Shown piece after piece: positions 3,391 to 43,558 of a stretch of 51,469 nucleotides of DNA (its first letter is position 1; the number at the start of each line of letters is the position of its first letter). Origin of the DNA: a virus (Duplodnaviria > Caudoviricetes); the IMG/VR virus record IMGVR_UViG_3300011335_000209, positions 1 through 51,469 of that record; one strand, given 5' to 3'. Both the position numbers and the translations under genes were made by a program. Below the pieces are notes generated by a model. That model searched no databases and was not told the DNA's origin. It saw only the letters and a list, made by a program, of their open reading frames with translations.

Positions 3391-3774
3391 TCAGCAATTT
3401 GGATTTGCAATGCCGCCTTTTTTCATGGCAGAGTTCTTCATCATCTTGCCATCAGGCATCTTGTGCATACCACCCTTGTTCATGGCAATCATCGGAGCCA
3501 TCGAAGCTACCGGCACTGAGCGGCGAGGTGAGCGCATACTAGACTTTTGCATGATCTCTTCACGCTGCATCCGAGGAGTCTCCTCCTTCTCATGCATCAT
3601 CATGGCCTTGCGGCTTGGGTAGGTTTCCCCTGTAGCCTTTTCCATCACCTTGCCGCCTTTGGCCATCTTGGTCATTGGCTTGCCAGGGTGCAAGGCTTCT
3701 TCATGCGTATGTACAGCTGCGGTAGGTGTAACCTTACCGCCAAAACTAAACTCTTTAACGTAAGTGCAGCCCAT
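3391..3774 (-). CDS. Small basic Met/Lys-rich protein with repeated MxKGG motifs (putative internal head protein)
   Basis: Start moved to MGCTYV (AAGGA RBS); FSFGG, MAKGG, MNKGG, MKKGG. Confidence 0.65.
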   Translation of the reverse strand: MGCTYVKEFSFGGKVTPTAAVHTHEEALHPGKPMTKMAKGGKVMEKATGETYPSRKAMMMHEKEETPRMQREEIMQKSSMRSPRRSVPVASMAPMIAMNKGGMHKMPDGKMMKNSAMKKGGIANPNC

Positions 3775-3785
3775 GGTATGTCCTT

Positions 3786-4196
3786 TTACGCGCTTGCGTA
3801 GGTTTTGATACACTCAATGACGATGGTGTACATGTCACCAGATGATGCGTCAGCGGTAGTGAAGAGTACATCCCCGGTGACTCCTGCACCGCCATTGTTT
3901 TGCAAGCCGCCAAAAGATGAAAAGTCCATCAGGTAGTTTGCATTCGGCTGAATCATCCACGCAAACACGTCAGTAGATGCATCCCAAAGAATGCGCACTT
4001 CCATGCCGTGAGTAGTAGACCAGATTTTGTTGATTTTTACGCCATTGCAAGCCAAATTAAATGCATTTGGATTTAGCGTAGAAACATCAATCTTGGTAAC
4101 GGCAGATTCACCCGTACCGTCAGATATGTTTGTAAACTTGGCGATGAACAGCCGTTCACCGTCAAGTAAAGTTTGTGATGCTACTGCGTCAGCCAT
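3786..4196 (-). CDS. Hypothetical virion protein
   Basis: 136 aa, GGAG RBS, beta-rich, in head operon. Confidence 0.7.
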   Translation of the reverse strand: MADAVASQTLLDGERLFIAKFTNISDGTGESAVTKIDVSTLNPNAFNLACNGVKINKIWSTTHGMEVRILWDASTDVFAWMIQPNANYLMDFSSFGGLQNNGGAGVTGDVLFTTADASSGDMYTIVIECIKTYASA

Positions 4197-7890: not shown

Positions 7891-8298
7891 TCAGATGAAT
7901 GCACGAATGGACAAGGGATCGACGTTAACTCGTCCGATGATGTCCAAGTCGTTAAAGATTACAAACAGCGCGGATTCGCCATTTGACATGGGAACTTCCC
8001 ACCTATCGCCGCCATACTTGGCAACTCGCACATACTCACCCTCCTCACACCAAGAACCCTCTGGCCAACTGGCCATTGTGTTGCGATTCTTAAATGCCAA
8101 TGGGCCAATTGAGATGACTTTAGCTACCTGAGTGTTCCACTTTTCAGTGTCTCGGGAGCCTACATCTAAAATAATGCCCGAAGCGGTGCGTTGTTTGGGA
8201 CTGCGAATTTGTACCAGAACACGGCTCCCAAAAGGCTGAATGCCGGCTTCTGCAGCCGGAAAAGCCTCTGCCATTGCGTCCTCATAAGTCATTGCCAC
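7891..8298 (-). CDS. groES: Co-chaperonin GroES-like protein
   Basis: PFGSRVLV, TASGIIL mobile loop, AKVISIGP, FNDLDIIG; likely GTG start at 8298 after AGGAG. Confidence 0.8.
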   Translation of the reverse strand: MAMTYEDAMAEAFPAAEAGIQPFGSRVLVQIRSPKQRTASGIILDVGSRDTEKWNTQVAKVISIGPLAFKNRNTMASWPEGSWCEEGEYVRVAKYGGDRWEVPMSNGESALFVIFNDLDIIGRVNVDPLSIRAFI

Positions 8299-8479
8299 TG
8301 TTTTTCTCCTCTTCCAAAATGGTAAAAAGTACATCTAACGCTGCGTCATAACCGGACACGACGCCCACGCGGTAGCCGTACTCAAAGCTGTCGCGGTTTT
8401 GGGGGCGCTTAAGTGATTCAAGCGCAAAACTTACTTGCGCGGCTTTCAGCCGATTTAGCAGAACTGTCTCTATATTCAC
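8282..8479 (-). CDS. Hypothetical protein
   Basis: GTG start overlapping the upstream stop (GTGA); 65 aa, FEYGYRVG. Confidence 0.6.
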   Translation of the reverse strand: MNIETVLLNRLKAAQVSFALESLKRPQNRDSFEYGYRVGVVSGYDAALDVLFTILEEEKNSGNDL

Positions 8480-8622: not shown

Positions 8623-11169
8623 TCAGCCGCCGGGATTGACGCCTGTACCTGTTGAGACGGCAAACTTCTCGCCCGTGGCTAGCTCGGTTGCGGCTAGGCG
8701 CAGGGCGGTGTTGTTGTCGTCTGTGTTCATTTGATATCGGGTTTGTAGCTCAACCTTTGTGCGTTCGTTTTCTGCTTGCTCTTTGAGCATGGTTTGCTGA
8801 GCATCCTCTGCCATCTTTTGTGCATTTTGCTGTGCGTCTTGCTGTACTTTGGCTTGCTCTAGTTGCAGCTTAGCTTGCTCTAGTTGCAGCTTGGACTGCT
8901 CAGCCTGCATTTTTGCTTGCTCAGCCTGAGCGGTTTGCTGCATTTTTGCTTGGTCAAGTTGCGTGCGCTGCTGGAGTGCTTGGCCTTGCAACTGCGCGTT
9001 GAGTTGGGCTATCTGCATACTGCTGTCTGGCGGCATAGGTGGCTGTGGCTTGAACTGCTGAGCAACTTGGTCAATCTGAGCCAACTCTTGGGCAAAGCCA
9101 TTTAGCTGCTGCTCAATGATTTCCTGCACTTTAAGAATCACTTTGACCTGTTGCTCTGCTTCTTTCTCAATCAGGTCTTTCTTCTGCGCAACGTCCACCG
9201 CTTCGTGAGCCTCGGTCAAATAGTAGTTTAGCAAATGGTCGCGCAGGTGAGTGGCCATTGGGAACATGTAGGTTTTGACAATGGCCGGGTTTTGGCCAAA
9301 CAGCGGTGACTTCAGAAACGCCAAGTGTGTTTTGAGGTGAGCAATATGGTCTTGCTGCGGTAAGACATAAACAGGGGTTCCCATGGTGGCGGCGACGTTT
9401 TCAGACACCGGGTCAATATCCTCGGTGCCTGGGGCGGGTTGCAGTACATCGTCAGCGCTAATCTTCAAGCTGCGCAAAAACATCTGCTCAACTTTGCGCT
9501 GGTCATACATTTGCGGCATGGTGGCCGAGCGTTGCATGAGCGCCTGAGTCTGAGCAAAGCGTTGTGTCTCAGAGAAGATTGCCGGGTCACTTACTGGCAC
9601 CACATCCATCGGGCCGTCAAAGTCCTCTGGCTTGACATCCAAACCGGATGCCTGCGCTTCAATGTCTTCGATGGTCAAATAGGCGCTGTTGATCCGGTGC
9701 AGAATTTTGAACACGCGGCTCATTGAGCTATGGATGCGCGAGTGTATGCTACTGAAGACCACCATGCCCTGCTCAATAAGGGCCATCGTGGTGCCAACCG
9801 GCTGTGCTTGGTTGGCATCGCTCAGCTTCTCAAAGCTGGTCTGCACAACGCCCTTGCCAGCGTCAACCACAAAGCCAAGCAGTTGGAACAGTACGGGGCT
9901 CGGACCATTGAACGGTAGCGGCATGGCCAGTTTGCGCACGTCATCGATGAGTGCACCGCCTTCAAGCTCTACAACCTCGGTGGGTTGCACGTTGAGCGTC
10001 TGGCCACCAGGGCCACCCTTTAGCTTGAGCAGCGTGGGGATGTTCTGAATGTGAGCGGAGTCCAGCAGGGCGCGTAAGGCACCTGTAGCGGCACCTGACA
10101 AGCCACCAATCATGTGAGTCAGGCCAATGGGGTAAGCCCCACGCCACGGGATGAACGGGAACTCTACAATCCAGTCAAGCTCTACGTGGCGTTCATCATC
10201 AGGCTCCCAATTACGATACAACGCCACCGCTTTGCTACTGGTCTTGTCAATGCTGATGATGTACGGCTCAACACCATCTCCAAAGTCTAGGTGGGTGTAG
10301 ATCTCAAAAATGGTGCGCAGACCGTCTTCGTTGTAGGAGGTGTCCTTGCGCCCTTCAATTTTGTCATTGGCAATTGATGCCTTGCTGTAGTCCGGCTCTT
10401 CTGGTGAGCCTAGGTCAACGTCAATGTACATCTCGCATTTGACTCGACGTTGGTACTCCATCTTGGTCACGTACTGGACGTGGGTCTTGCGCTCAGCAGA
10501 GTAGAAGTTAGTGGCCGCAAACGGCAGGTATACATCATCAATGGGGATGAACTCAGCGCATGGGCGCAAATACTGGGCACTCCACATCAGCTTGAGGTAC
10601 TGAGCACCGCCCAATGGCAGTTGCGTACTGAGTTGCTCTAGTTCGCCCCTGAACTCTGGCATCTGCTCAGTAGTCTGCCAGTTCATAAAATCAGTCTTGC
10701 GCTCGGCCTTGGCAACCTTGTCCTTCTCTTTCTCGCCTAAAATCTTGCTCTTAACAGGACCGCCTGGAGGGAAGATTTCCTTCATCACTCGTGACGAGAA
10801 GTCAACGCAGGCTTCTACCAGCATAGGGTGGACGACCTTTGTTGAGCCGGTGAACTGAGCACCACCAGGTGCATCGTCGCCTAAGCCAGTACGGCGCAAA
10901 CCTTCCTCGTACAACTTGTCTCGCTTTTGCCGAGCGTCCTTGTCCTTGGCAACCTTGTCTAGCAGGTCTGTGACGGCATCTTGCAGGTCGGCTTGGTCAA
11001 CCTCGTCAACAATGTTGGCAAAGTGCGCTTGCTTTTGGCGTTGGTCGTCCTCGTTCTTGAGTTTGACCATTGCGCCGCCGTCATCAGTATCCTTGGTGTC
11101 TGACTCATCATCGTCTACCTCAACGATTTCGTCTTCGTCTTCAATGGTCAGGTCTGTATTTTTAGGCAT
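8623..11169 (-). CDS. Portal protein with Gln-rich C-terminal coiled-coil barrel
   Basis: HFANI, HPMLVEACVDF, FMNWQ, GTTMALIEQG; long Q-rich tail like P22-type portals; downstream of terminase. Confidence 0.85.
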   Translation of the reverse strand: MPKNTDLTIEDEDEIVEVDDDESDTKDTDDGGAMVKLKNEDDQRQKQAHFANIVDEVDQADLQDAVTDLLDKVAKDKDARQKRDKLYEEGLRRTGLGDDAPGGAQFTGSTKVVHPMLVEACVDFSSRVMKEIFPPGGPVKSKILGEKEKDKVAKAERKTDFMNWQTTEQMPEFRGELEQLSTQLPLGGAQYLKLMWSAQYLRPCAEFIPIDDVYLPFAATNFYSAERKTHVQYVTKMEYQRRVKCEMYIDVDLGSPEEPDYSKASIANDKIEGRKDTSYNEDGLRTIFEIYTHLDFGDGVEPYIISIDKTSSKAVALYRNWEPDDERHVELDWIVEFPFIPWRGAYPIGLTHMIGGLSGAATGALRALLDSAHIQNIPTLLKLKGGPGGQTLNVQPTEVVELEGGALIDDVRKLAMPLPFNGPSPVLFQLLGFVVDAGKGVVQTSFEKLSDANQAQPVGTTMALIEQGMVVFSSIHSRIHSSMSRVFKILHRINSAYLTIEDIEAQASGLDVKPEDFDGPMDVVPVSDPAIFSETQRFAQTQALMQRSATMPQMYDQRKVEQMFLRSLKISADDVLQPAPGTEDIDPVSENVAATMGTPVYVLPQQDHIAHLKTHLAFLKSPLFGQNPAIVKTYMFPMATHLRDHLLNYYLTEAHEAVDVAQKKDLIEKEAEQQVKVILKVQEIIEQQLNGFAQELAQIDQVAQQFKPQPPMPPDSSMQIAQLNAQLQGQALQQRTQLDQAKMQQTAQAEQAKMQAEQSKLQLEQAKLQLEQAKVQQDAQQNAQKMAEDAQQTMLKEQAENERTKVELQTRYQMNTDDNNTALRLAATELATGEKFAVSTGTGVNPGG

Positions 11170-14100
11170 ATGCACTTTCACGTTGCGCAATTATTTGCTG
11201 GATGTTTTCAGGATCATACTCATCATCTAAGTCAGCAATGATCTGTTTGATCTTAATTGGGTCAAAATGGTTTGATGAGACTATGCCGCCGTGGGCCATG
11301 TGAACCTCGCCGCCCTCGGCGTAAATGTCTGGCAAATTTATAGCTCGGCGTTGAGGTAAATTTGGTTGATATTGGTTCCATTGAGGCAACACAATATTGC
11401 CAGTCATTTCAAGTTCTTTCCTAAGCGCCTCAATGTAATCTTCTTGCGATCTGCGTGGAAATGGTTCACGCAACTCAGCGCGTGGCAACAACTGAACAAG
11501 GCCAGAGGTTTCTCCAGATTGAGCCATAGCCCTGTTGCGATGCCTTCCCTCATGGTTAGATATAAAAGGCGTGGCTTCAGTTCCTTGACGTTGTTTATTT
11601 ATTTCCAAAAAAGGCACATCATCAAAACCGCCAACGGTTCTTAAATGCTCTAAATATTCTGGGAATGTAACTTGCTCTCCAGTAGACGTCCGCCTCACTG
11701 AATTTGGTCTGGTAAAGGTTGAGCCAATTGGGGTAGCAAATTCTTCAAAACGAGAAGGATTAAGCGTCATCATTGCCTTGGCGTTATCGCCTTCAAACAC
11801 TCGCTTGAGCGCCTCCTCCTTGTACAGCCTCTCAAGGTTCGGGATTTCGTCAGCGGCACGCTCTACACGCCTTGCGCCGTAGTCGCCCTTGCTTTGGCGA
11901 ACGGCCTCTTTGACGTTGCTGACCTTGCTAGGGATGATGATGCTGGGCGCTTCTACTTTTGGTGTGGTTGTTACGGCGTCAGCGGCTTTGCCTGCTTTGT
12001 TGATGACTCCCATCAAGCCCTTGACTAGCTTCCCACCACCGGCCATGTGAACTATGCCGCCGTGGGCCATGCCTTCTTTTAGCGGTAAAAGACCAAGTTC
12101 TTTTTGAAGTTCTATGTTGTACTCTTCTGGGGTGACGTACTTTACGCCGCCATCGCCTTGGTATACTTTTAACCCAGCATTCTCCAACTCATTAACTTTA
12201 GACCAGTTGCCACTCTTGACAAAGTCTTGCACAAATGGTAGGAACTCATCGGCAGGTTTTTTGTTATTGAAGCCTTTGATTTGAATTATTCTTTCTGGAG
12301 GAGTTATCCCTTGCGAAGCCAAATACTCTTCAATCATGTCAATTCTTTGGGCGGGGTGCCTAAGACTTCTCACTTCCGGATGAGCTTGCGCGTAATACTC
12401 CATGGCATTATTGAGTAGTTTAGTCCGGTCATCAGGAGGCATGTTGTTGTAATAGCCTTGCGTGTTTTGTGGCTTCACCTCAATTGTTACACGCGGCTGG
12501 CCCTTGTCATCACGCAGGGAGTAGATACGGCTTCGGCCTTCTAGCACGTCTTGACAGTACCCGCCAACGCAGTGGGCCATGGTGTCGCCTTCGTACTTGA
12601 GGGCGTCTTCAAGCTCTTTGCTGACTTTTGGTTTGTTGCGTTTTGCCCATTTAGTTGCAAGCTCTTGGGCATAACCTTCGACAACCATACGGTAGTCATC
12701 GCCTTCCTCGTCTAGTCCTTGTCGTGCAGCTCTTTGATGAGCCTGATCCATAATTCGCTCTTGTTGATTTGGAGGAATGTCAAACAACGGATCGGCGTAC
12801 TCTCCTTCAACAAGGGGCTTATCCTTAGGGGCTTTCAACTCCACCCATTTCATGCCTTGCCCAGGATACTCCTTAACCAGTTGCGTGGCTGCATTGTTGG
12901 CTCTTAAAAGATCAGCCTTAGCCTTCTGAGTTGCACGCCAAGCATTGATGTCAGCTACACGGTCAACTGCCTGTGCCATAGTGAGCTTGCTTAAGTCAGC
13001 CTGGTCAATGAGCAGGTTTTTAGGCAAGCCAGATTCAGGGTTGGTAGCGTTGCGTAGCTCATCAACTAAGTGATTAAAGCCCAGGTCTTCACTAAGATAT
13101 TTTTTAGGATAATAAACAGGGGTTTCTGGTGGCACTTTGAGCAGCCACGAATTAGTATCAACCGTAGAGCCTAAACCTTGGCGAATCTGAGAAGCACTTA
13201 ATAGGCGGGTATGTTCACTTGCAGTGGACGCATTTAGGGCCAAGTCAGATGCATTCTCCCATGCTCTAGCGGCGGGTGAAACACCTAAACCTTGCTCAGG
13301 AAAACCGGCTCTTTTTCGTGCTGAAGCAGTTTGTTCTACCAACCACTCATTATACAGCGCATCTTCTGGATTATAAGTATGGAGCGCTTGTCTGGCTTCC
13401 ACCAATGCCTTCTCTTTCTCTAAGCCAATCATCTGCTGGCGCATAGAGGTCAAATCCCCAACCGGCACTCCACGTTCCCTAGCCGTCTGTTCCATCTTTG
13501 CGGCAAAGGCATCAATACGGCCTTGCACCTCAGCTAGCTTAACTGGTTTGTCCACGGCATACTTTTCGGCCATAGCACGCAAAGGATCGCCGGGTGTGGC
13601 CATGTCGTTCTTAATATAGCGGGTTAGTTGTTTGTCAATAAAGTTGTTGACTGGGTCAAATGGCAAATAATAGCCATCTCCTCCTGCCTTATCTCTAACA
13701 AAACCTCTTGCAATTAAGTCGTCAGCTTCTTCTTGGCTAGTTGCAATTGAAGGGGTTTCACGCCGCTTTATTTGACTCACAAATTCTTCTACTGAACCTT
13801 TTAGGAAGTTGCCGCCCGGCATTTTGATGACACCAAGTTGAGCTGCACGGCTGCCAGAAGCAGGTCCAGGGGCAGCTTCAGCAATTGCTTTGGCCGTTGC
13901 CTTTGCACTCTTAATCCCATACCTAGCAAGCGTTGTAGTGCCAGAGCCGCCAAACAAGTTACCTGCGGTGGTAAACGCCTTGCCTGTCGGGGTTTCATTA
14001 AGCTGAGCACCTGGCAAGTATTCATTGTAGAACTCAGTGGTTGGTAGCTGCGGCGTAGGGTCTGCACGGCTGCCAATCCCAAATGCACGAAGTGCAGGAA

Positions 14101-14308
14101 AGGCGGTCAACACTTGCGGCGGCAGTTGAGAGATGCCTGCACGGGCTAAGCCCTCAATGTCTCCGGGCAATCCTAATGTGCCTGCAGCCCAGCCGCGCAG
14201 TGCGGATAGTGGCGCATTGGCTGCGGCGGTTCTGTCATTGTTGGCTTCTGGCCTGCGACCAGCGGAACGATAACCTATGTAAGGCTCAGACAAATCGTAT
14301 TGAGGCAT
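11162..14308 (-). CDS. Large multidomain (polyvalent-like) protein with PcfJ-like and ParB/Srx-like segments
   Basis: 1048 aa; LKYEGDTMAHCVGGY...IYSLRD...TIEV...QIKG (PcfJ-like); NHEGRHR (ParB-like); domains separated by MAHGG/MAGGG/YAEGG. Confidence 0.6.
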   Translation of the reverse strand: MPQYDLSEPYIGYRSAGRRPEANNDRTAAANAPLSALRGWAAGTLGLPGDIEGLARAGISQLPPQVLTAFPALRAFGIGSRADPTPQLPTTEFYNEYLPGAQLNETPTGKAFTTAGNLFGGSGTTTLARYGIKSAKATAKAIAEAAPGPASGSRAAQLGVIKMPGGNFLKGSVEEFVSQIKRRETPSIATSQEEADDLIARGFVRDKAGGDGYYLPFDPVNNFIDKQLTRYIKNDMATPGDPLRAMAEKYAVDKPVKLAEVQGRIDAFAAKMEQTARERGVPVGDLTSMRQQMIGLEKEKALVEARQALHTYNPEDALYNEWLVEQTASARKRAGFPEQGLGVSPAARAWENASDLALNASTASEHTRLLSASQIRQGLGSTVDTNSWLLKVPPETPVYYPKKYLSEDLGFNHLVDELRNATNPESGLPKNLLIDQADLSKLTMAQAVDRVADINAWRATQKAKADLLRANNAATQLVKEYPGQGMKWVELKAPKDKPLVEGEYADPLFDIPPNQQERIMDQAHQRAARQGLDEEGDDYRMVVEGYAQELATKWAKRNKPKVSKELEDALKYEGDTMAHCVGGYCQDVLEGRSRIYSLRDDKGQPRVTIEVKPQNTQGYYNNMPPDDRTKLLNNAMEYYAQAHPEVRSLRHPAQRIDMIEEYLASQGITPPERIIQIKGFNNKKPADEFLPFVQDFVKSGNWSKVNELENAGLKVYQGDGGVKYVTPEEYNIELQKELGLLPLKEGMAHGGIVHMAGGGKLVKGLMGVINKAGKAADAVTTTPKVEAPSIIIPSKVSNVKEAVRQSKGDYGARRVERAADEIPNLERLYKEEALKRVFEGDNAKAMMTLNPSRFEEFATPIGSTFTRPNSVRRTSTGEQVTFPEYLEHLRTVGGFDDVPFLEINKQRQGTEATPFISNHEGRHRNRAMAQSGETSGLVQLLPRAELREPFPRRSQEDYIEALRKELEMTGNIVLPQWNQYQPNLPQRRAINLPDIYAEGGEVHMAHGGIVSSNHFDPIKIKQIIADLDDEYDPENIQQIIAQRESAYA

Positions 14309-14314
14309 TTTGGT

Positions 14315-15148
14315 TTACCCTGCAGTTCCCATGACTAAACCTCCGGCAGCTAGCTTTTTGCCTTTTAGAAGTTCTAGCATTTTGGGCGTAAAGAATTCAA
14401 ACAAATCAGTATCCACTAAGCCGCTTCCAGCATCTAAAGGAACATCACCTAGATTGATTTCAGATTTTCCAAGGCCTCGGTTGACATCATAGTGACGCAT
14501 CATAGCAAGCGGGGACATATCACCAACCATGTCAGCCATGTCTAATCCTTCTTCCACAGCAGCCCGAATGGATGGATTTGACATGTAGTCACCTAGTCTG
14601 CCCTTTGACAAGGCGCGTTGAAGTTCATATCGAGCGCTTTCATAAGCTGTAGGGCTGAGTGTAACCGCCGGATCACCGGTGCCAAAGTACATGCTTGCTG
14701 TTCTTACATCGGGATAGATGAGCGGTCTTGGAAAAGGATAACCAGAATTAGGCGTTGCAATCATCAATCGCAGTTCAGGTAAATTTTCACCGGATTTAAA
14801 GCGCGAGTCGTTCCACCAATATTCAGCAGGCTTAACGGTAGAAAATCCTTCTAAATCAGCTTGACTTGGCCGCACAGAAAAAGGTGTGACGCCGGGATGA
14901 GTGTGAAAATCGGCAATAGGTTGCCCACTAAAACGCGCTCGAATAGTATCGTTAATGTCCGGTGTAACTGTATCGGGGGTTCCTTCAACAACGCGACTGC
15001 GAAATGCTGGATGCACTTGAAGACTTGAGCCTACCACGCTTGTTTCATTGCCGGTTTGGGCAGTGCGGCGCAATGCTGACAATATTGTTTCAGCTTGTGC
15101 CGGCGCTTTGCGTGCCAGTATGGATTTGAGTAGTGACAAACCAGACAT
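14315..15148 (-). CDS. JAB/MPN-motif metalloprotease-like protein
   Basis: 277 aa; N-terminal E (TGNE) plus FHTHP-x7-PSQAD, matching the JAMM E...HxH...SxxD pattern. Confidence 0.6.
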   Translation of the reverse strand: MSGLSLLKSILARKAPAQAETILSALRRTAQTGNETSVVGSSLQVHPAFRSRVVEGTPDTVTPDINDTIRARFSGQPIADFHTHPGVTPFSVRPSQADLEGFSTVKPAEYWWNDSRFKSGENLPELRLMIATPNSGYPFPRPLIYPDVRTASMYFGTGDPAVTLSPTAYESARYELQRALSKGRLGDYMSNPSIRAAVEEGLDMADMVGDMSPLAMMRHYDVNRGLGKSEINLGDVPLDAGSGLVDTDLFEFFTPKMLELLKGKKLAAGGLVMGTAG

Positions 15149-15153
15149 TTTAA

Positions 15154-16731
15154 CTAGGCTGCGTAAGGATTGACTTTGTCTTTACTCTTAGGCCTAGGTT
15201 CATCGACGTCCTTGGCTTGTGGCAGCTCAAACCATCCATCATCCTTGAGATAGATGACGGCTTGGGTAAACGTGTCCACATAGTCGTCATGCTCGGCCAA
15301 AGGGAACTTGGTAAGTTGTTTGATGAACGCCGCTGCCCAGCTGACAGGCTGTCCAGGGTTGCGCTTTGACTCGGGTATCCACAATAGTCCAAGCTCCAAG
15401 GTGGGTGCTGCTTGATGAGCACGGCTTACTTTGTCGGCGTTTCCCGGATTATACCCTACTGCAGGCACTCTGGCTAAACGCAAGTCTTGAAGCAGCGACT
15501 GTCCGCTGGCTTTGGCCTCAACCAAGATGCGGTCAGGTCGCCGAGCCCGAGTGGGCATGCCGGCCCCGTTATTGTTGTCGCCACCATACTCAGTCGTCCA
15601 GTCCTTAACGGCTTTGGTTCTTAAGTCAGGGTAGCTCAAGTGTTCGTCCCAAGCATCGAGCAGCATGCAGTTCCGCTCGCCTTTGTGCGTAAACATTCCC
15701 CAAACTGTGCATGCCGTTGGGTCGCCAGAAGTTTTTTCCGTGAATGCACAATCATAGCTTTGCAGTATGTACTCGTACTGCGGCAGCCGTTCATTGTGTG
15801 GCCATTGTTGGAAGAAGGATGTCTTGAGCAAGCCACCGGTACTCGGCACAGGATCTTGCTGCAGTTGACCGCTTGTGCCGTATGAACCGAGTAGCTGCTT
15901 TAAGGCAGTGATCTCAACCGGCCCAAAGCGTTCAGGACAGATGAGTTCACCTTTCTTTGTGCGTGGATCGTATGGACCGAGTACAGTCTTGCGTGCTTTG
16001 CCATCCCATTCGGCAGGGATGCAGATGTGCTCCCAGCCTTTGATGTCATCGAGTATGTGGCCGCTGATGTCACGCTCGTGCAATCGCTGCATCACAACCA
16101 CCATTGCATCTGTCTTGGGGTTATTAAGTCGTGTTGACCAGACCATGTCAAACCAGTCCAATGTACTCTCTCGCATGGCATCTGACTGGGCTTCTTGTGC
16201 GCCGTGCGGATCGTCAAGGACCAAGCGAGAACCGCCTTCACCTGTAGCTGTACCACCAGGCGATGTAGCTATGCGGTAGCCTGTCTTAGAGTTCTCAAAG
16301 CGCTGCTTGGCGTTCTGGTCGCCGGACAGTTCAAACATGCTGCCCCAACGCTCTTGATACCAAGGAGACTGCACTAAGCGCCGTGCTTTTAAGTTATCAC
16401 GGATGCTTAAGTTGCCAGCATAACTTGCGCATAAAAATTTTTGCTCCGGTGTGGTCAACCACTCCCACATCGGCCACATGACGCTGACGATGGTCGACTT
16501 GGAGTGACGCGGAGGTATGTTAATAAGCAGCCGCCGAATGTCGCCGCATGAGATAGCTTCAAGGTGTTCGCAGATCTCCTGGATGTGCCATGACGGTACA
16601 AACGGTATACCTGGTTCTACCACATGCCAGCTCTGCTTGACAAAGTCATACAAACAACCCTCAGCCTTTCGACGGTCTTGCTCATGCTTGATCATGTCAA
16701 GCATTGCAACCGGGCTGAGTGGTGCGTTCAT
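15154..16731 (-). CDS. terL: Terminase large subunit
   Basis: INIPPRHSKS Walker A, LVLDDPH Walker B, QSYDCAF and HDDYVD nuclease motifs. Confidence 0.95.
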   Translation of the reverse strand: MNAPLSPVAMLDMIKHEQDRRKAEGCLYDFVKQSWHVVEPGIPFVPSWHIQEICEHLEAISCGDIRRLLINIPPRHSKSTIVSVMWPMWEWLTTPEQKFLCASYAGNLSIRDNLKARRLVQSPWYQERWGSMFELSGDQNAKQRFENSKTGYRIATSPGGTATGEGGSRLVLDDPHGAQEAQSDAMRESTLDWFDMVWSTRLNNPKTDAMVVVMQRLHERDISGHILDDIKGWEHICIPAEWDGKARKTVLGPYDPRTKKGELICPERFGPVEITALKQLLGSYGTSGQLQQDPVPSTGGLLKTSFFQQWPHNERLPQYEYILQSYDCAFTEKTSGDPTACTVWGMFTHKGERNCMLLDAWDEHLSYPDLRTKAVKDWTTEYGGDNNNGAGMPTRARRPDRILVEAKASGQSLLQDLRLARVPAVGYNPGNADKVSRAHQAAPTLELGLLWIPESKRNPGQPVSWAAAFIKQLTKFPLAEHDDYVDTFTQAVIYLKDDGWFELPQAKDVDEPRPKSKDKVNPYAA

Positions 16732-34202: not shown

Positions 34203-36233
34203 CTACTTTGTTTTGTTGCGGTTTTTCAATGCTTCTTCAATATCTGGGCCTTGAATTGGACTTTCCTCACGATCTTGCAAAGCCCTCTCAATGTCGGTGG
34301 TAGGTGACATGATGTCAAACGCTGTAGGTGCTGGTGCTGGTGCTGGATAGATTGCAGCACTTGTACCAGTAACAGCACCTGCCTCCCCTAGCGTAGCCCG
34401 GAACTGTTTAGGTGCTTGCTTGGCTGCATAGTTCTCAATCATTTGCACAGCGGCAGCAACTTCGTTGGGCTCTTTGGCCATCAGCATCTCGGCTAGTTTT
34501 TCAGCACGTGCTTTAGACATCTGCGCAGACCTGATCGCGCCCATGACCATACTGCTCAATGCCCCGCTGAAGTTGCCTGTGGCTGCTTTTGCTGCACTTT
34601 CAATCATTCCGGTGTCTTCGTCTAAAGACCTACCAAGTTCTTGACGCCTGGCGGTTGACGAATTGCCAAGAATTTTGTTTGATTCTCCAAACAGTTGCGA
34701 CTCACGCATTAACGCAGCTTTATACAGCTCAAAATCGGCTGGATTGTCAAACAGCGTTGCCAACTTCTTTTGCATGTCTGGGGAACCAATAACCCGCTGA
34801 GCCGTATTTGGATTGTTGGACGGCACCATGATGGTGTCATAGATGCTGCGTGCAACGCCGGTTCGAAAGGCATCCTTCTCACCAGACCCCATTGCGTCAA
34901 CCATCTTCTTGATTTGCTCATGGTCAAGACTCTTAAACTCATCTTTGCCCATACGCAGCGCATCCAAAATCTCTAAGTCGCCAGCATAAGTTTTTCGAGC
35001 AAGTTTGTAGTCCGGCACATTTTCATCGATTGCGTTTACAAACTGTTTGCGCAGATCTCTGAGCGCTGAGGCTTCTGCAGTGCTCATGCCTTGGCCACGG
35101 AATCCAGAATCAATCGTGGCATCAATACCGCGCTTGATGTAGTCCAGTGTTCGTACATCTGGCAGCTTGACTAGATCCAAAATCTCGGTGCCGTTGGCAT
35201 CAAACCGGCCAGATGGTTTATAAATCTCAGGCAGTGCAAACTTCAAAGGATCTTCACCCTTGAGCTTTGCTGTCTGGGCCTCTGTGTCAGCTATGGACCG
35301 AGCCTTGTCAAAAAATGCTTTAAATTGTGGGTTTTTAAGCACCTCAACAATCCTAGGGTCATCAACGTCTCCATGAGCGTATGCCTTTTCGTACAAGCCT
35401 TTTGCGTTATTTCTGAGTTGTGCAGTCAAACTGTCTTCCATGTTGTAATATTCGACCGGCTTTAGCGCTGCTTTTGTTTGTGCCTGAATTCGTTCGCGTG
35501 CGCCAAGTTTTTGGGTTGTTAGTGCGTTTTCAATTGCATTACTACCTGCACCAGCCCGTTGAGCCACCGCTTCAGCCAGATCTCTAAGAGCAGGGTTTGC
35601 ATTGGCCATGACCGACGGGACACCCATTGCCCTATCTTGTGCCATTTTTGCAGCAACATCTTGAGGATTAACCTTGGCTTGACGCATAGCCTCATTCATC
35701 TTTTCTAACGCCCGGTCTTGCACAACTTTGGGGGTTGAGAAAAGACGCTCTTGCAGCCACTTAAGAGCACCACCAGTACCGCGTAGGGCTAAAGGTAGAC
35801 CAACACCTAGCCCACCGCCAATTAATGCCCCACCGCCTGCACCGCTTGCACGGTTGCCCTCGGTTGCTGAGCCAGCGCCTGATATGGCTCCACTTGCTGC
35901 ACCTAGTGCGCCTAGTCGTGCTAAGCCTGCCGGTTGCATGCCCGGAATCATCATCATAGCTACACCAGGGGCAGCGCCGCCAACAAACTCAGACACGCCC
36001 TGGGTAAAGGGGTACTTCTTGGCGTACTGGCCATACTCCTCCCGTATTTGTGGCAACAAAGTCTCGTAAGATTCACTGCCCAACTTTGACCGCAACCAAG
36101 CCTCAGCCTCGTCGCCCCAACCCATGCCTAAACCTTGACCCAACACTGCACGAGCAGTGTTGAGATAGGGGTCAACCGGCCTGCGCCCAGTCACCAAATC
36201 AGACAGGGTCAGATTTGAAACTTTATCACCCAT
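34203..36233 (-). CDS. Internal virion / DNA ejection protein (putative)
   Basis: 676 aa; GQGLGMGWGDE, Gly/Ala-rich membrane-like segment, helical body, GNSSTARR. Confidence 0.65.
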   Translation of the reverse strand: MGDKVSNLTLSDLVTGRRPVDPYLNTARAVLGQGLGMGWGDEAEAWLRSKLGSESYETLLPQIREEYGQYAKKYPFTQGVSEFVGGAAPGVAMMMIPGMQPAGLARLGALGAASGAISGAGSATEGNRASGAGGGALIGGGLGVGLPLALRGTGGALKWLQERLFSTPKVVQDRALEKMNEAMRQAKVNPQDVAAKMAQDRAMGVPSVMANANPALRDLAEAVAQRAGAGSNAIENALTTQKLGARERIQAQTKAALKPVEYYNMEDSLTAQLRNNAKGLYEKAYAHGDVDDPRIVEVLKNPQFKAFFDKARSIADTEAQTAKLKGEDPLKFALPEIYKPSGRFDANGTEILDLVKLPDVRTLDYIKRGIDATIDSGFRGQGMSTAEASALRDLRKQFVNAIDENVPDYKLARKTYAGDLEILDALRMGKDEFKSLDHEQIKKMVDAMGSGEKDAFRTGVARSIYDTIMVPSNNPNTAQRVIGSPDMQKKLATLFDNPADFELYKAALMRESQLFGESNKILGNSSTARRQELGRSLDEDTGMIESAAKAATGNFSGALSSMVMGAIRSAQMSKARAEKLAEMLMAKEPNEVAAAVQMIENYAAKQAPKQFRATLGEAGAVTGTSAAIYPAPAPAPTAFDIMSPTTDIERALQDREESPIQGPDIEEALKNRNKTK

Positions 36234-39200
36234 TATTCAGTCTCCTGTGCAATTTCTGGGGTCGTAGTACGATAGACCCCTGAAACAATGTCTTTGAGTC
36301 TAGCTTTATGCCTAGCTTGTGTAATCTTTAAAGCATCGTAAGCATTAAGCATGATCAGCTTTCTTTCTTCTATGCTCTTGCTTTCCAATCCCTCAAGACT
36401 CAACAAAATTTTACGCTCGCCTTCGGTTGGATTGCCGCCGAATGATGCCCTTAATTTCTCAATAGCACCTTTGCTTAGCAAGTTTTCAAGTTCACGAGTT
36501 GCAAGGACTTTTGGATCTTTACTGCCTGCAACCTCAAGAATTTTGCGTTGTGCGGTGTCAATAGCTGATGTGTCAAAAGTGTTTGGATTAAGCGCATAAG
36601 CACGCTGCAAGTTTTTAAGTGCTTGTTCTGTGCTTGCAACCAAATCTTCAGTTTCTGTTTTAAGTTTCAACTCAGGCGGGGACAGTTTGGTAGCATCTGC
36701 TCTTGTCTTAGCTTGAGCTGCGTCAAACTTTTCTCTTGCCAGTTTTGTAGCCTCATCGCCCCTACTAATTGCTGCTAAGCTTGCTTGAGCAGCCGCAGCA
36801 GAAGCATCAACGCTGGCGGTCAGCCTCTTAAACTGTTCGTCAGAGATTGCTGTTACGCGAGCTTGATATTTTGGAGTGCCTGGAATCAACCCTTCGTCTT
36901 GTGCTTGTTTTCCTGCAGCTGATTGGGCTTCGCCAGATCTAAAATATTCCTTAATCAACTCACGTCCATACGCTGCTTTCTCTTTCATCTCTTCGCTGGT
37001 CAATGCTCGCAATGCCGCGACATCTTCTTTTGCTGCAGTCATACCAGCTTTAGCACCTTCTAAACCAAGTTGCAGTCTAAGCGCTTGACCAGCTTTGCCT
37101 GCCAACCTCGTCTCTTTAGCTTGGTCAGCCAGGCTCTTGTTGACCTCGGCCAGACTCTCAAAAAAGTTACCTGTCTTTGTAGGTGCACCAAATGCAGCGG
37201 CAAGCCTAAAGTACATCTCAGCGTTTGACGGTTTATTGTCGTCTTGGCCTTTGATTGCGTTTTCCAACATTTTGTTAAAAGCTGCAGTTTGTGCTGTTGC
37301 AGCAGTCCTAGCAGCACGCAATTCGTTCGCATAGGGTGATGCTTGGGATTGGTTGGCCAGCAGCATCTTTTGCAACATAGCCATATTTGGGCTCATTGGG
37401 ATTGTGGTGTCATCGGGTTTAGCCATAGACAACCGACTTGCCGAGTCATCAGCATACTCAGGTTGGATGTTAACAGTAGGAATTGAATTCTGTGAAATCA
37501 AAGCCATCCGATCTGCACCGGGATCAATGCTACCTGTTGCAAATGTAGGGGTAAATCCTGGCGTTGTGTATTTTGCCGCTAAGTCTAATAATTTTCGATC
37601 CACCGCAGGGGGCGTAGCTCTGGCCGCCACAGGGGGCGAATAACCCGGGCCAGTAGCAACCTCATCACTTTCACCAAAGAGTCTGGGGTCCATAGGACTG
37701 TAACCTTGACCTGTAGAAACTTCATTGCTCTCGCCAAAAAGCCTGGGGTCTAGTGGTCTGACCAGTGGGGTACTTTCTGTTGCCTGGGGAGGTTTGGCAA
37801 CTACTTCCTTTAACGCAGTTAATGGGGATGCATTAATAATAGCTTGCTTGATCTGTGCAGGTGTAAGTGGCACCGACTCCGGCATTGGTTCAATCAGGCC
37901 CATGCTAGGTGGCATTTTGGCCGTAACATCTTGAATAGGCTCCTCATCCAACAGTCTATAAATTTCTGCAACCCTGCTCATAGCATCGTCACGCTCATAC
38001 TCTGTTAATTTTCCACCCTCTAATGCCTTAATCAACTGCTCTGCTTCAGCCATTTTTGACATAACATCCCCGCCAGCCTGATAGTGCCGAACCGCACCAC
38101 CTTGTGCGTAACTGCCTATGTAGCCGCCTTTGGCTTGATAGCCACCACCTGTTGCACCGCCACCAGCCCTTGCGCCGCCACCGCCATCGCCTCCGCCACC
38201 CCTTGCGCTACCAGAATCCATTGAACGAGGATCACCAACAAAACCCGCGATTGTTGCCGAATTTGCATCCCGCATTGCTTGTGCTGCTGCGGCTGCATCT
38301 CTTGCAGTAACGCCGGGACTAACTACACCCTCGATTGGAATAGTGCTTTCTTTGCCAAAATTTCTATGGCCCGAATAAGCTTCGGAGCCTTTTGCAATTG
38401 CTTGCTGTTCCCGCACAAAATCTGGCACTAAGGCTTTTTGCAGCGCTCCAAGACTTGTAAGCCCCAATATATTTAGACCCGCTTGTGTAATTGCACTAAA
38501 TGTTGGATTGGCACTATAAAACGCAGCTTTGTCTGCATTTGACATAGCGTCCCAGCCGGGATTTGAACTGAGGCCATCATTCCCACGCCCACTGTTATCA
38601 ACAGGCAAAACATACGGCGTAGTAGTTGCCGCAGTTTGCAAGACCGGCGACGCTGTAGGTGTGCTGTAGGTAGGCTGATTCAGGATGGCCCTCTGATTTC
38701 TTTGGAACTGCGGCGCACTGTACATAGACATAGTAGCCGGTTGATAAGGCTTTTCACTAATCTTTCTATAAATTTCTGCAATTTTACTCAAAGCCTCTTC
38801 GCGCTCGTACCCAGTTAATTTTCCACCCTCTAATGCCTTAATCAATTGTTCTGCTTCGGCCATGCTTGACATAACATCCCCGCCAACTTGATAGTGCCGA
38901 ATTGCACCACCTTGTGCGTAACCGCGTTTAGCCTTTATGGCAGCATCCCTGGCAGCATTAGCGGTTTGCTCTTCAGTCGTCATCCCCTTGAAAATGTCCA
39001 ACTCATCAGATTCAACCGTGTCCCCAAAGCGGTTATAGAAGTATTCTAAGCCAGAGGCATCAGGCACCCTGCCCAACACTTGCTGGTACATGTCTCGAAT
39101 GCCTATATTTTGGAGTGCGTTGGTTGGCGCTGCTGCTTTAAGTTCTGGTTGAGCCGCTACGCTAAAGGTTGACAGCTCAACAGGATTAACGCTTGTTCCA

Positions 39201-40012
39201 AACGAAGACTGCCAGTAGTTAATTTCTGCAGCACTTGGTGTGCGGCCTAAGACTCGCTGATACGCCTGTGCAATGGACATATCAGTTGTACCTATGGGTG
39301 TTGGCGTAGGTGTTGGCGTAGGTGTTGGAGTAGGTGTTGGCGTAGGTGTTGGAGTAGGTGTTGGAGTAGGTGTTGGTGTAGGTATCAGCGTAGGTGTTGG
39401 TGTAGGCTTAGGTGTTGGTGTAGGTATCAGCGTAGGTGTTGGTGTAGGCTTAGGTGTTGGTGTAGGTATCAGCGTAGGTGTTGGTGTAGGTGTGCCAATT
39501 AAACCCGTTAGGACTGGTAAAACTGGTAAACCTGTGGCAGACAGATTATTTACAGGTCGGCTACCTATCTCCCCTGCCGCAGACCGCCTAAACTCAGCGT
39601 ACTCTTCTGGAGAAACCATATCCCCAAACTTACCTTTCCAATACGTCAGGCCTGAGGGGTCAGGCGCTCGCCCCAGCACATCGTAGTACATTTGTGAGTA
39701 TTGATCTATTGCGCTACCGGTGCCTGGGCTGCTCACGGCTCCTCTTTGATACTGAGGAGCATCGTACAAAGACGTATTAGCCAAACGATTCTTGTATTCG
39801 TCCGAGTAAGTTTTGTACAGGGCTTGATTTGAGTTGTACAAAGGCATATCTGCGTTGTACTTGTTTAGCAAAGCATCATAGTTTGCCTTGTCTATTGCGC
39901 TAGCTCCGGCGGCCAGATCAGTTGGCTTCGTCGGCATTGACATGCCGGAATAGGACAAAGTTGGTGTGCTAACACCAAACTGCTGCATCAATCGATCAAG
40001 TTCATAGCCCAT
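36233..40012 (-). CDS. Large internal virion / ejection protein with DUF4214-like repeats, Pro-Thr linker and duplicated module
   Basis: 1259 aa; three Y..VLGR.P...G..YW-type repeats, (PT)n, two YAQGGA.RHYQ.GG modules, helical C-terminus. Confidence 0.6.
37955..38922. repeat. Imperfect direct repeat of about 158 bp (37955-38112 and 38765-38922)
   Basis: Colinear copies 810 bp apart, e.g. gttaattttccaccctctaatgccttaatcaa in both. Confidence 0.9.
39297..39493. repeat. Coding tandem repeat (12-bp units, Pro-Thr)
   Basis: (GTAGGTGTTGGN)n with a higher-order [14 protein letters not shown] unit. Confidence 0.95.
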
Positions 40013-41768: not shown

Positions 41769-43319
41769 TTATGCACCTCTCAAATAAGACAATGGGGACC
41801 TGGCGTCAGAACTAATCTTACCTACCGCCAATGCCTTGCCCTTGTGTTTCCGAATTTCTTGACGCATTTGATCCAGCTTTTGTGCCCCGGCTTTGCTGGA
41901 TCCATCTCCGAGAAGAGCCACTGTTTCTGCGTCAATCACATACTCGCCATCACTTAGCCTTGCATCAATTGTGTCATCACGGCCAGAGCCACTACCTCGC
42001 GCCATGTACGCAATTTGAGACAGTGGACCGCCCCTAGCCTTAGCAACAACTGGCAGATTGTAAGCACCTGAGGTAATTTGTGGCCAACTTTGCGCCATGA
42101 ACTGGCTCAAACTCATGTTAGACCTTGCTGCATCTTGCTGCATCTTTGGCCAGTCCCATTTAATTGATGGGCGGTTAAAATATTCCTGCTGCTCAGGCGA
42201 CATAGACTTGACAGCTGTTTGAGCTTCAGTGGGTGCAGAAAGCAATCCAGCAAGTGGTAGCAAGGCCGCTGCCGTACTAAGATTAAATCCTGACTTAACG
42301 TCTGGTTTAGCCGCAGAGGTACTTAGATTATCAACCGCAGCTTGCGACGGTTTGAGCATGCCCGCAGCTAGACCTGACAATGCACCCCCGGCCAAAGCTG
42401 TCTGCGGGTCATAGCCAGCAACCATTGCATTTTTGAAAGTCTCACTGCCTGCAGCTAAGCCGGTACCGAGTGCTCCTGAGCCACCCATGCCGCCTACTTT
42501 GTTCCCAATGTAGCTGCCTAAAGCTCCTTGAACTGCACCTTCTAGCGGCCCGCGACCTGTAGCCATACCACCTAAAGCGCCGACAAGACCGCTGCCTAGC
42601 AGCCCCTGTGTGGCCGCACTTGCATCTGGTGCAAACATTTGTCCAAGGTTGCCGCCTAAGCCGCCGCCCATGCCACCCATGATTGCGCCTTGTAACGGGT
42701 TGCCGCCAGTTATGGCTGATGTGCCGGCTCCAATCAACGCGCCGCCCAAAGCCGGAGCCCAGGTTGCAGAGGCACCTAGTGCCGTACCTAACGTAGTACC
42801 TATGCCTGGAGCAATAAAGTCCAAAGCAATTGGCAAAGCCACTTTCCACAGGTCGCTAAAACTAAAATACTCAGGCAAGCCTGTGCTTGGGTTGATTGTC
42901 CCACTGCCGCCGGCTTGCTTCAACATCCGAGCTTCACGTGGGTTAATGTGCGCAAGCATTGTGTCGCCGCTGCGCCCAGCCATGCGCATTTGTCGTGCAG
43001 CAGCTGCTAAACCGCCTCTGGCCATTTTTTGAGTAGACCGTTCTTGCAAGCCATATAGCAAAACTAAAACCGAGATTAGTACAACCGGGTTAAATTGTTC
43101 AGGCAAGTCTTCGGCCGGGGCCAAACCGTCTTTAACAATTGCGTCTCTAATTTTTGGATATTGGTTTGGATTGTTTAGAGCAAACTCAAGCATCTTGACC
43201 AGCTCAGCAAGTTGCTCCGGCGCAATGTCCGTGTCACCCATTTTTTGCTCAACAGTCAATACTGCTTGCGCAAAGCGTGGGTCTTTTTTGGCTATCTCTA
43301 GAATTTCTTGCTTATTCAT
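41769..43319 (-). CDS. Gly-rich internal virion protein
   Basis: GRSGDTMLAHINP...TINPSTGLPEY; Gly-rich middle; GSGRDDTIDARLSDGEYVIDA; start moved to MNKQE. Confidence 0.65.
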   Translation of the reverse strand: MNKQEILEIAKKDPRFAQAVLTVEQKMGDTDIAPEQLAELVKMLEFALNNPNQYPKIRDAIVKDGLAPAEDLPEQFNPVVLISVLVLLYGLQERSTQKMARGGLAAAARQMRMAGRSGDTMLAHINPREARMLKQAGGSGTINPSTGLPEYFSFSDLWKVALPIALDFIAPGIGTTLGTALGASATWAPALGGALIGAGTSAITGGNPLQGAIMGGMGGGLGGNLGQMFAPDASAATQGLLGSGLVGALGGMATGRGPLEGAVQGALGSYIGNKVGGMGGSGALGTGLAAGSETFKNAMVAGYDPQTALAGGALSGLAAGMLKPSQAAVDNLSTSAAKPDVKSGFNLSTAAALLPLAGLLSAPTEAQTAVKSMSPEQQEYFNRPSIKWDWPKMQQDAARSNMSLSQFMAQSWPQITSGAYNLPVVAKARGGPLSQIAYMARGSGSGRDDTIDARLSDGEYVIDAETVALLGDGSSKAGAQKLDQMRQEIRKHKGKALAVGKISSDARSPLSYLRGA

Positions 43320-43327
43320 TTTTTGTC

Positions 43328-43558
43328 CTATGACAGACTCTGACAGAAACGTTCCGCCCATTCACGCCAATCTTTAAAGTCGTACGGCTTTGGAAAATTA
43401 TGGCCTAAAGAGGTGTTGTTCAGAAACTGCATGGCCCAGTCTTGCCAGTTGCCGTCCTTGTCCAACCTACCAAACGCACCATAGTTATCTAAATCAAGCG
43501 CAACCTGGTCGGCCCAATCATTAAGCTGCATGTACGACGGGCGCGTTATGGTTGTCAT
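43328..43558 (-). CDS. Small Trp-rich tail-module protein
   Basis: 76 aa; WQDWA...WREWA. Confidence 0.65.
   Translation of the reverse strand: MTTITRPSYMQLNDWADQVALDLDNYGAFGRLDKDGNWQDWAMQFLNNTSLGHNFPKPYDFKDWREWAERFCQSLS

Follow-up and report, generated by a model that had tools for sequence, protein, structure and literature searches.

A predicted JAB/MPN metallopeptidase among the exchangeable modules of a hypervariable polyvalent protein in freshwater podophage-like viruses

The JAB superfamily, whose JAMM enzymes cut after Gly-Gly, is already known to include phage proteins such as lambda gpK, a tail-tip JAB fused to NlpC/P60 and encoded beside the ubiquitin-like gpI. Cleavage at Gly-Gly, in the form (hydrophobic)-x-G-G|x, is also the activity of adenovirus adenain, pS273R of African swine fever virus (ASFV) and poxvirus I7, essential Ulp1-like cysteine proteases that mature core proteins. 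Phage polyvalent proteins are known as well; their peptidase modules have been assigned to the zincin (MPTase), assemblin-like, DD and LonC superfamilies, and the only JAB type listed among their modules in the main text of that report is the RadC type, for which nucleic-acid substrates are predicted (Iyer, Burroughs, Anand, de Souza, Aravind 2017, PMC5512222). In this work we analyze a gene for a predicted JAB/MPN-like metallopeptidase of 277 aa (14315..15148) in IMG/VR virus record IMGVR_UViG_3300011335_000209 (Caudoviricetes), a complete record of 51,469 bp with direct terminal repeats that was studied at its full length and is referred to below as the window. Between the terminase (TerL) and portal genes, this clade of viruses encodes a hypervariable polyvalent protein built of exchangeable modules; the JAB domain was found to be one of them, and in the window it is present as a cistron of its own. 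All genes and motifs of the window given here by coordinates lie on the minus strand.

The assignment of the gene was based on its open reading frame (ORF), a family of 54 members, an AlphaFold2 (AF2) model and fold searches. Its ATG is located 5 nt past the stop codon of TerL, and the encoded protein consists of a core (approximately residues 1-160), a helical C-terminal sub-domain (approximately residues 160-263) and a tail that contains a Gly-Gly (GG) motif. The ORF and the strings on which the original prediction relied are all there: E35, HTHP (residues 82-85), PSQAD (residues 94-98) and LAAGG, ending at G270. E35, within GNETSVVG (codon at 15044..15046), would be the catalytic Glu, a role equivalent to that of E28 in the account given of BubC (PMC11601596); the H82-T83-H84-P85 stretch (14894..14905) holds the predicted Zn ligands, and S95 and D98 in P94-S95-Q-A-D98 (14855..14869) would complete the JAMM signature, Glu...His-x-His...Ser-x-x-Asp, with a spacing from HxH to Ser of 10 residues, a distance that varies within the family. 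When conservation was scored on an alignment of 28 family sequences whose identity to the window protein ranges from 24 to 93%, H82, H84, P85, P94, S95, D98, G269 and G270 turned out to be invariant (28 of 28), while E35, D80 and T83 were conserved in at least 90%, the rows lacking E35 being N-terminal fragments. Given this family-wide conservation, the E...HTHP...PSQAD string can be regarded as more than a chance resemblance. LAAGG had been described as a C-terminal tag; the string is present, and it does not form the C-terminus, since seven further residues (LVMGTAG) follow G269-G270. It is part of the GG linker motif L-A-A-G-G-L-V (residues 266-272; 14333..14353).

A word-indexed search returned four relatives at E<=1e-3 among 2,537 candidates, and a profile search of 1.84 billion protein representatives (50% clustering) gave the 54 members at E<=1e-3, 39 of them at E<=1e-30. 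The family is rare, and its sources are metagenomes only; in tblastn the JAB protein matched none of 50,697 phage records. Pfam Prok-JAB (PF14464) matched the window protein with 16.6 bits (E 0.0076) over residues 74-105 only, a segment that includes the HTHP stretch. This is below the gathering threshold of 25 bits, so that by the Pfam rule the protein is a distant relative and not a member of that family. Prok-JAB was nevertheless the sole Pfam family to recur, in 15 of the 28 members at E<=1 (best 6.9e-4). Searches with the window protein gave no PHROGs family and no NCBIfam match, and none of the PADLOC JAB (Cap3-type) models matched it at E<=1, the few matches among the 28 relatives being weak (best 6e-4). 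The family profile run with hmmsearch against PDB sequences yielded chance matches only (E>1).

Structure prediction with five sequences was unusable (predicted local distance difference test, pLDDT, of 51.8), and the model built from 28 sequences (pLDDT 85.9, predicted TM score 0.85) was used instead. With this model, JAB/MPN chains headed all three structure searches of the PDB. Foldseek reported nothing at E<=1e-3, and the top of its list was made up almost entirely of JAB/MPN proteins, including BRCC36 (1.6e-3) and an archaeal Rpn11 homologue (probability 0.98). In the ESM Atlas no lead reached 0.9: viral clusters without a name scored 0.81, Prok-JAB was assigned to 13% of one cluster, and Toxin-JAB1 scored 0.76. 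In BFVD the model matched several entries of 520-630 aa annotated as 'Minor capsid protein' from uncultured sipho- and myoviruses (probability 0.69-0.99, TMq about 0.3-0.4), which hints that JAB-like modules may exist in minor head proteins of other phages. The model itself has the MPN/deaminase-like alpha-beta fold. The invariant JAMM motif, the recurrence of Prok-JAB and the JAB/MPN chains at the top of the structure searches all lead us to assign the window protein as a predicted real, very divergent JAB/MPN (JAMM-type) zinc peptidase domain with its putative active site intact, in agreement with the fold first proposed for it.

The order of genes in this part of the window is TerL (15154..16731; phrog_38, 4.1e-88), the JAB gene, a gene for a PcfJ-like, polyvalent-type protein of 1048 aa that is the candidate functional partner of the JAB module (11162..14308; Pfam PcfJ, 2.1e-8), and the portal (8623..11190; phrog_1216, 6.5e-13). 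The JAB gene does lie in the interval between terminase and portal, where it had been placed, with the 1048-aa gene separating it from the portal. Phage DSL-LC04 (OR003939.1) shares the order TerL, PcfJ-like gene, portal, GroES-like gene and, further on, the major capsid protein (MCP). Related loci were retrieved with the portal as marker, keeping the best 80 of 317 matching stretches. Each complete TerL-to-portal interval, or slot, contained a single large ORF, 368-1801 aa long and highly variable, and among phages with 70-98% identical portals the length of the interval went from approximately 1.07 to 6.4 kb (L012-L089). A Pfam scan of 19 slot proteins revealed ART-PolyVal in six, two of them above the cut-off (L076, 1.7e-19; L014, 8e-9), PcfJ in five, SLT in one (7.4e-27) and DUF6973 in two (below the cut-off). 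These variable parts are bounded on the C-terminal side by a tail of about 45 aa that stays constant (...GGxVSxYDPxxIDxIxxQ...) and, in many slot proteins, on the N-terminal side by an equally constant region with WADGG(F/S)V. The slot proteins have the architecture of polyvalent proteins: they are large and multi-domain, are encoded in a portal/terminase context and carry variable enzymatic modules. The layout of the slot also recalls that of polymorphic toxin loci.

The JAB domain behaves as one of these modules. In the slot protein of L020 a JAB module comes first, then a PcfJ body and last the tail; this JAB module is 92% identical to that of L021 over residues 1-333, and the body is 73% identical to residues 715-1458 of the L016 protein. 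In L012, L014 and L028 a region containing ART-PolyVal is found N-terminally in place of JAB, and the JAB of L020 stands before a GG-GG pair and the PcfJ body, where L012 and L028 have that region. At the other extreme, the slot proteins of L008, L021 and L022 (368-376 aa) are made up of an N-terminal extension, JAB and the tail of about 45 aa only. The window JAB and that of L008 are just 34% identical, though the TerL, portal and MCP of these phages are 95-97% identical.

Many JAB domains of the family sit inside proteins of 850-1170 aa. The PcfJ-like body of the neighbouring gene was also detected by blastp in 10 of the 56 family proteins collected, either after the JAB domain (P0016, P0006, P0055, P0056) or before it (P0017, P0025, P0036, P0037, P0038), and P0009 combines SLT (3.4e-26), a weak match to ART-PolyVal and a C-terminal JAB. 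In the window, a TAA stop and two codons (14309..14317; ...LVMGTAG*TKMPQYDL...) are all that stands between the JAB gene and the 1048-aa gene, both being in the same frame. This in-frame layout is repeated in L003, and in other relatives the two genes are fused or in different frames. To call the gene 'stand-alone', as was done initially, is misleading, as it is so only locally, being in frame with its neighbour and fused in relatives. Read-through of the TAA was considered and discarded: nothing speaks for it beyond the shared frame, and the frames differ in other relatives. A recent split of the JAB gene from the 1048-aa gene is possible but unsupported. PcfJ-like matches in the Yersinia phages YerA41 and GN1 carry the annotation 'structural protein', the one hint that such proteins may be packaged in the virion.

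JAB was present in 16 of 54 loci with a complete slot, six of the 16 coming from the JAB-seeded search only, and in 10 of 48 complete slots retrieved with the portal. The figures were 5 of 14 for loci sharing at least 92% portal identity, and 12 of 43 for distinct largest slot proteins. Searches of whole records with the family profile gave no JAB in G001, G002, G003, G005 and G006 (100% complete according to CheckV) or in G004 (97%), with G000 (7.4e-95) and G007 (5.1e-113) as positive controls, and its absence from G001 and G002 was confirmed by a local hmmsearch of all ORFs. No JAB-like domain was found in the record of phage DSL-LC04, in a search that had no internal positive control, and no JAB was matched in the fragments G008-G010, which are 66-74% complete. 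The JAB module is accessory and swappable, and is absent from complete phages that are otherwise near-identical.

The GG motif follows a different distribution. Across the clade, a loose pattern was matched 173 times within 51 distinct slot frames, and these matches gave the consensus G/K-[YFW]-A(71%)-[ED](59%)-G-G-[SA]-V(75%). The motif is often doubled, the second copy lying eight residues further along (...GGxV-[HRK]-M-x-x-GG...). In the window, the count of the loose pattern was not significant (19, versus 9.0 +/- 3.0 in shuffles with a maximum of 19), while a stricter pattern, picked post hoc, gave 10 hits versus 1.4 +/- 1.2 (maximum 5 of 300 shuffles). These hits fall in four classes of proteins: the slot proteins (JAB and the 1048-aa protein), a 140-aa ORF, and proteins of 1259 and 530 aa. 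With the same strict pattern, the complete genomes without JAB gave 12 hits (G001, 1.7 expected from shuffles) and 6 hits (G002, 1.8 expected), in the same four classes, and the JAB-bearing G000 and G007 gave 10 and 8. The slot proteins of all seven phages without JAB (G001-G006 and DSL-LC04) bear the motif. Whether relatives with GG tags always carry the JAB gene had been set beforehand as the refuting test for its being the maturase of the GG-tagged proteins; they do not, and what these sequences indicate is that the tags belong to the clade as such, whether or not JAB is there.

Within the slot proteins the motif closes the JAB domain in all fused and free relatives, the fused forms having upstream GG motifs too. 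In the 1048-aa gene, an exact direct repeat of 21 nt (encoding MAHGGIV), at 11280-11300 and 12051-12071, flanks a cassette of 771 nt (257 codons). The repeat copies lie in tandem GG motifs at both junctions: MAHGGIVHMAGGGKL (residues 747-761; 12026..12070) at the upstream one, and YAEGGEVHMAHGGIV (residues 996-1010; 11279..11323) at the downstream one, followed by the conserved C-terminal tail. The near-identical locus L003 has a version of 794 aa that lacks exactly these 257 codons. A ...HEGRHR... stretch whose family is unassigned is present inside the cassette. The homology between L020 and L016 and that between L020 and L021 both break at a FAEGGAV-MDEGGAA pair. To judge from these alignments, GG motifs mark boundaries between modules as well as recombination breakpoints, and it seems that the DNA encoding them serves as a recombination joint.

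The remaining strict hits are located outside the slot. The 140-aa ORF (3391..3813), kept in G001 and G002, encodes a Met/Lys-rich protein with three to four GG motifs (FSFGGKV, MAKGGKV, MNKGGMH, MKKGGIA) and no match in Pfam, PHROG or NCBIfam. In L009, an ORF of 362 aa (18132-19220 of that locus) with nine GG motifs forms part of the head module, flanked by MCP and the p136 homologue; gene order is different in the window, in which the 140-aa ORF comes after p136. The 1259-aa protein (36233..40012; DUF4214, 2.9e-13), with two tandem pairs of GG motifs, is encoded in the tail/ejection block, next to a gene whose product matches phrog_4287 (DNA ejection protein), and the 530-aa protein (41769..43361) has a single motif (MARGGLA), found in the same place in G001 and G002. 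The positions of the motifs in the 1259-aa and 530-aa proteins are kept in relatives, which suggests that the GG motif may mark internal or ejected virion proteins. With respect to other genes around the slot, the portal has a long Gln-rich coiled C-terminal extension ending in ...NPGG, and its start is overlapped by 29 nt by the next upstream gene. Just past it lies a GroES/Cpn10-like gene (7891-8334; Pfam Cpn10, 1.3e-7) kept clade-wide, including phage DSL-LC04, where it is annotated as co-chaperonin GroES.

The best reading of these data is that JAB is an accessory peptidase cargo module, either an injected effector or an optional processor of GG linkers. We give a probability of about 0.45 to its being an accessory conflict effector, a deconjugase acting against defences based on ubiquitin-like (Ubl) proteins, and not an enzyme needed for building the capsid. 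The constant C-terminal tail would hold the polyvalent protein in the head until it enters the cell together with the DNA, and the JAB module would then hydrolyse the bond after a Gly(-Gly) tail. Its substrates would most likely be ubiquitin-like conjugates that the host makes through defences of the Bil, Bub or type II CBASS type, or else some other host protein. The effector, in essence the packaged anti-defence deconjugase of the original prediction, fits better because modules turn over fast in near-identical phages, because JAB occupies a position equivalent to that of ART and because it can be the sole cargo. Several points weigh against it. Packaging and injection are deduced from gene position and from the concept of polyvalent proteins as set out in PMC5512222. 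The window protein has no PADLOC JAB match at E<=1, so it is not a captured defence JAB, nor is it close to Cap3 or BilC. The free JAB of the window lacks the constant C-terminal tail, which makes its incorporation into virions uncertain. Finally, the cutting of JAMM enzymes after Gly-Gly, together with the embedding of this family in Gly-Gly motifs, would be better explained if JAB acted on the linkers themselves. In that case JAB would cleave, in cis or in trans, the polyvalent protein to which it belongs at its [YFW]-A-x-G-G|x-V linkers, and perhaps other GG proteins as well. Modules would thereby be set free either inside the head or once injected, which is what zincin-like MPTase modules have been proposed to do in polyvalent proteins. 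A GG motif stands at the end of each JAB module, upstream motifs are present in the fused forms, and the motifs lie at module junctions; moreover, BubC, the closest solved structure, is described as cutting a linear fusion pre-protein directly behind a conserved Gly (PMC11601596), and the patchy presence of JAB is compatible with such optional processing, since about 36% of polyvalent proteins carry an MPTase (PMC5512222). We consider it the less likely of the two all the same. The motif is as frequent and conserved in genomes without JAB and therefore must have a JAB-independent role, it delimits all modules and not JAB alone, the proteins with nothing but JAB and the tail (L008, L021, L022) have nothing to release, and the GG tail of the window protein is unplaced in the AF2 model (residues 267-277, pLDDT <50). 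Complex prediction of JAB with residues 728-790 of the neighbouring protein, which include a GG-GG linker, gave a score of 0.00 in a run without controls, which is evidence neither way. A composite proposal, that JAB is virion cargo which either strips Bil/Bub/CBASS-type Ubl conjugates at DNA entry or cuts [YFW]-A-E-G-G|S-V linkers, with the GG linker being also a recombination joint in both cases, is tentative.

Of the two roles first put forward for the gene, that of the maturase, taken as an essential protease that would mature the prohead or virion by acting on every GG-tagged structural protein, is very improbable. As an obligate function of the clade it is rejected, because JAB is absent from relatives that keep the GG motifs. 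This role was in part based on no other prohead protease being evident, which holds as far as Pfam and PHROGs recognise none in the head module, and the enrichment of GG motifs in likely internal virion proteins would be in line with it. However, six relatives that are 97-100% complete (G001-G006) and DSL-LC04 keep proteins with the motif in the absence of JAB, G001 and G002 have the same set of GG-motif proteins as the window, only 10 of 48 portal-retrieved slots contain the gene, and it belongs to a hypervariable slot and not to the conserved head genes. It is also improbable, though less so, that JAB is not a peptidase at all and acts on nucleic acids or nucleotides like RadC, or is a structural, inactive MPN scaffold. 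An inactive scaffold would not be expected to keep all JAMM residues, the N-terminal Glu among them, as this family does; as for RadC, its Pfam model matched one of the 28 members (E 0.28) versus 15 for Prok-JAB, and the peptidase JABs BubC, Cap3 and JAMM1 obtained structure scores at least as high as RadC.

Comparison with described systems helps to place the module. From Cap3 of type II CBASS and from BilC it differs in the lack of a PADLOC JAB match and in its context, a phage packaging module and not a defence operon; no defence-type operon (Ubl, E1, E2) was met at the locus, where the neighbours are TerL and the PcfJ-like gene, the rest of the genome not having been scanned for these components. 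The slot proteins resemble polyvalent proteins, which are likewise large, multi-module and encoded beside the portal and terminase genes, and, as in them, ART-PolyVal, SLT/lysozyme-type and peptidase modules vary between close relatives (PMC5512222). Neither a peptidase-type JAB module nor a GG linker motif is mentioned in the main text of that report, where the words 'linker' and 'glycine' each occur 0 times, its supplementary architecture lists aside, and a literature search, in which PMC5512222 and PMC11601596 were the only relevant reports, gave no description of a peptidase-type JAB cargo module or of the GG motif in phages. Our analysis adds a candidate peptidase-type JAB family, for which there is no Pfam or PHROG model, to the repertoire of phage polyvalent modules, and documents a conserved Gly-Gly linker at module boundaries and apparent recombination joints in the likely internal proteins of a freshwater podophage-like clade. 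It also makes clear that the combination of JAB and GG tags does not equal a maturase here. If removal of Ubl conjugates proved to be its function, the module would represent a counter-defence and a ready probe for the newly described bacterial immunity that resembles ubiquitination, while cutting of the linkers would provide a defined protease/site pair for the release of phage cargo.

Lambda gpK is also a JAB/MPN protein encoded by a phage, and the window gene differs from it in having no NlpC/P60 match and, as the original prediction had already noted, no tail-tip context, its place being the packaging/head module between TerL and portal. The comparison with proteases of the adenain, pS273R and I7 type depends on linker processing. 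If this were true, the module would share with those enzymes the logic of a protease related to deubiquitinases that acts on internal virion proteins, and would be the metalloprotease counterpart, in a bacterial virus, of the way in which adenovirus and ASFV mature their core proteins at GG|X; unlike adenain, pS273R and I7, the window protein is a predicted metallo-JAB, and one that its clade can dispense with.
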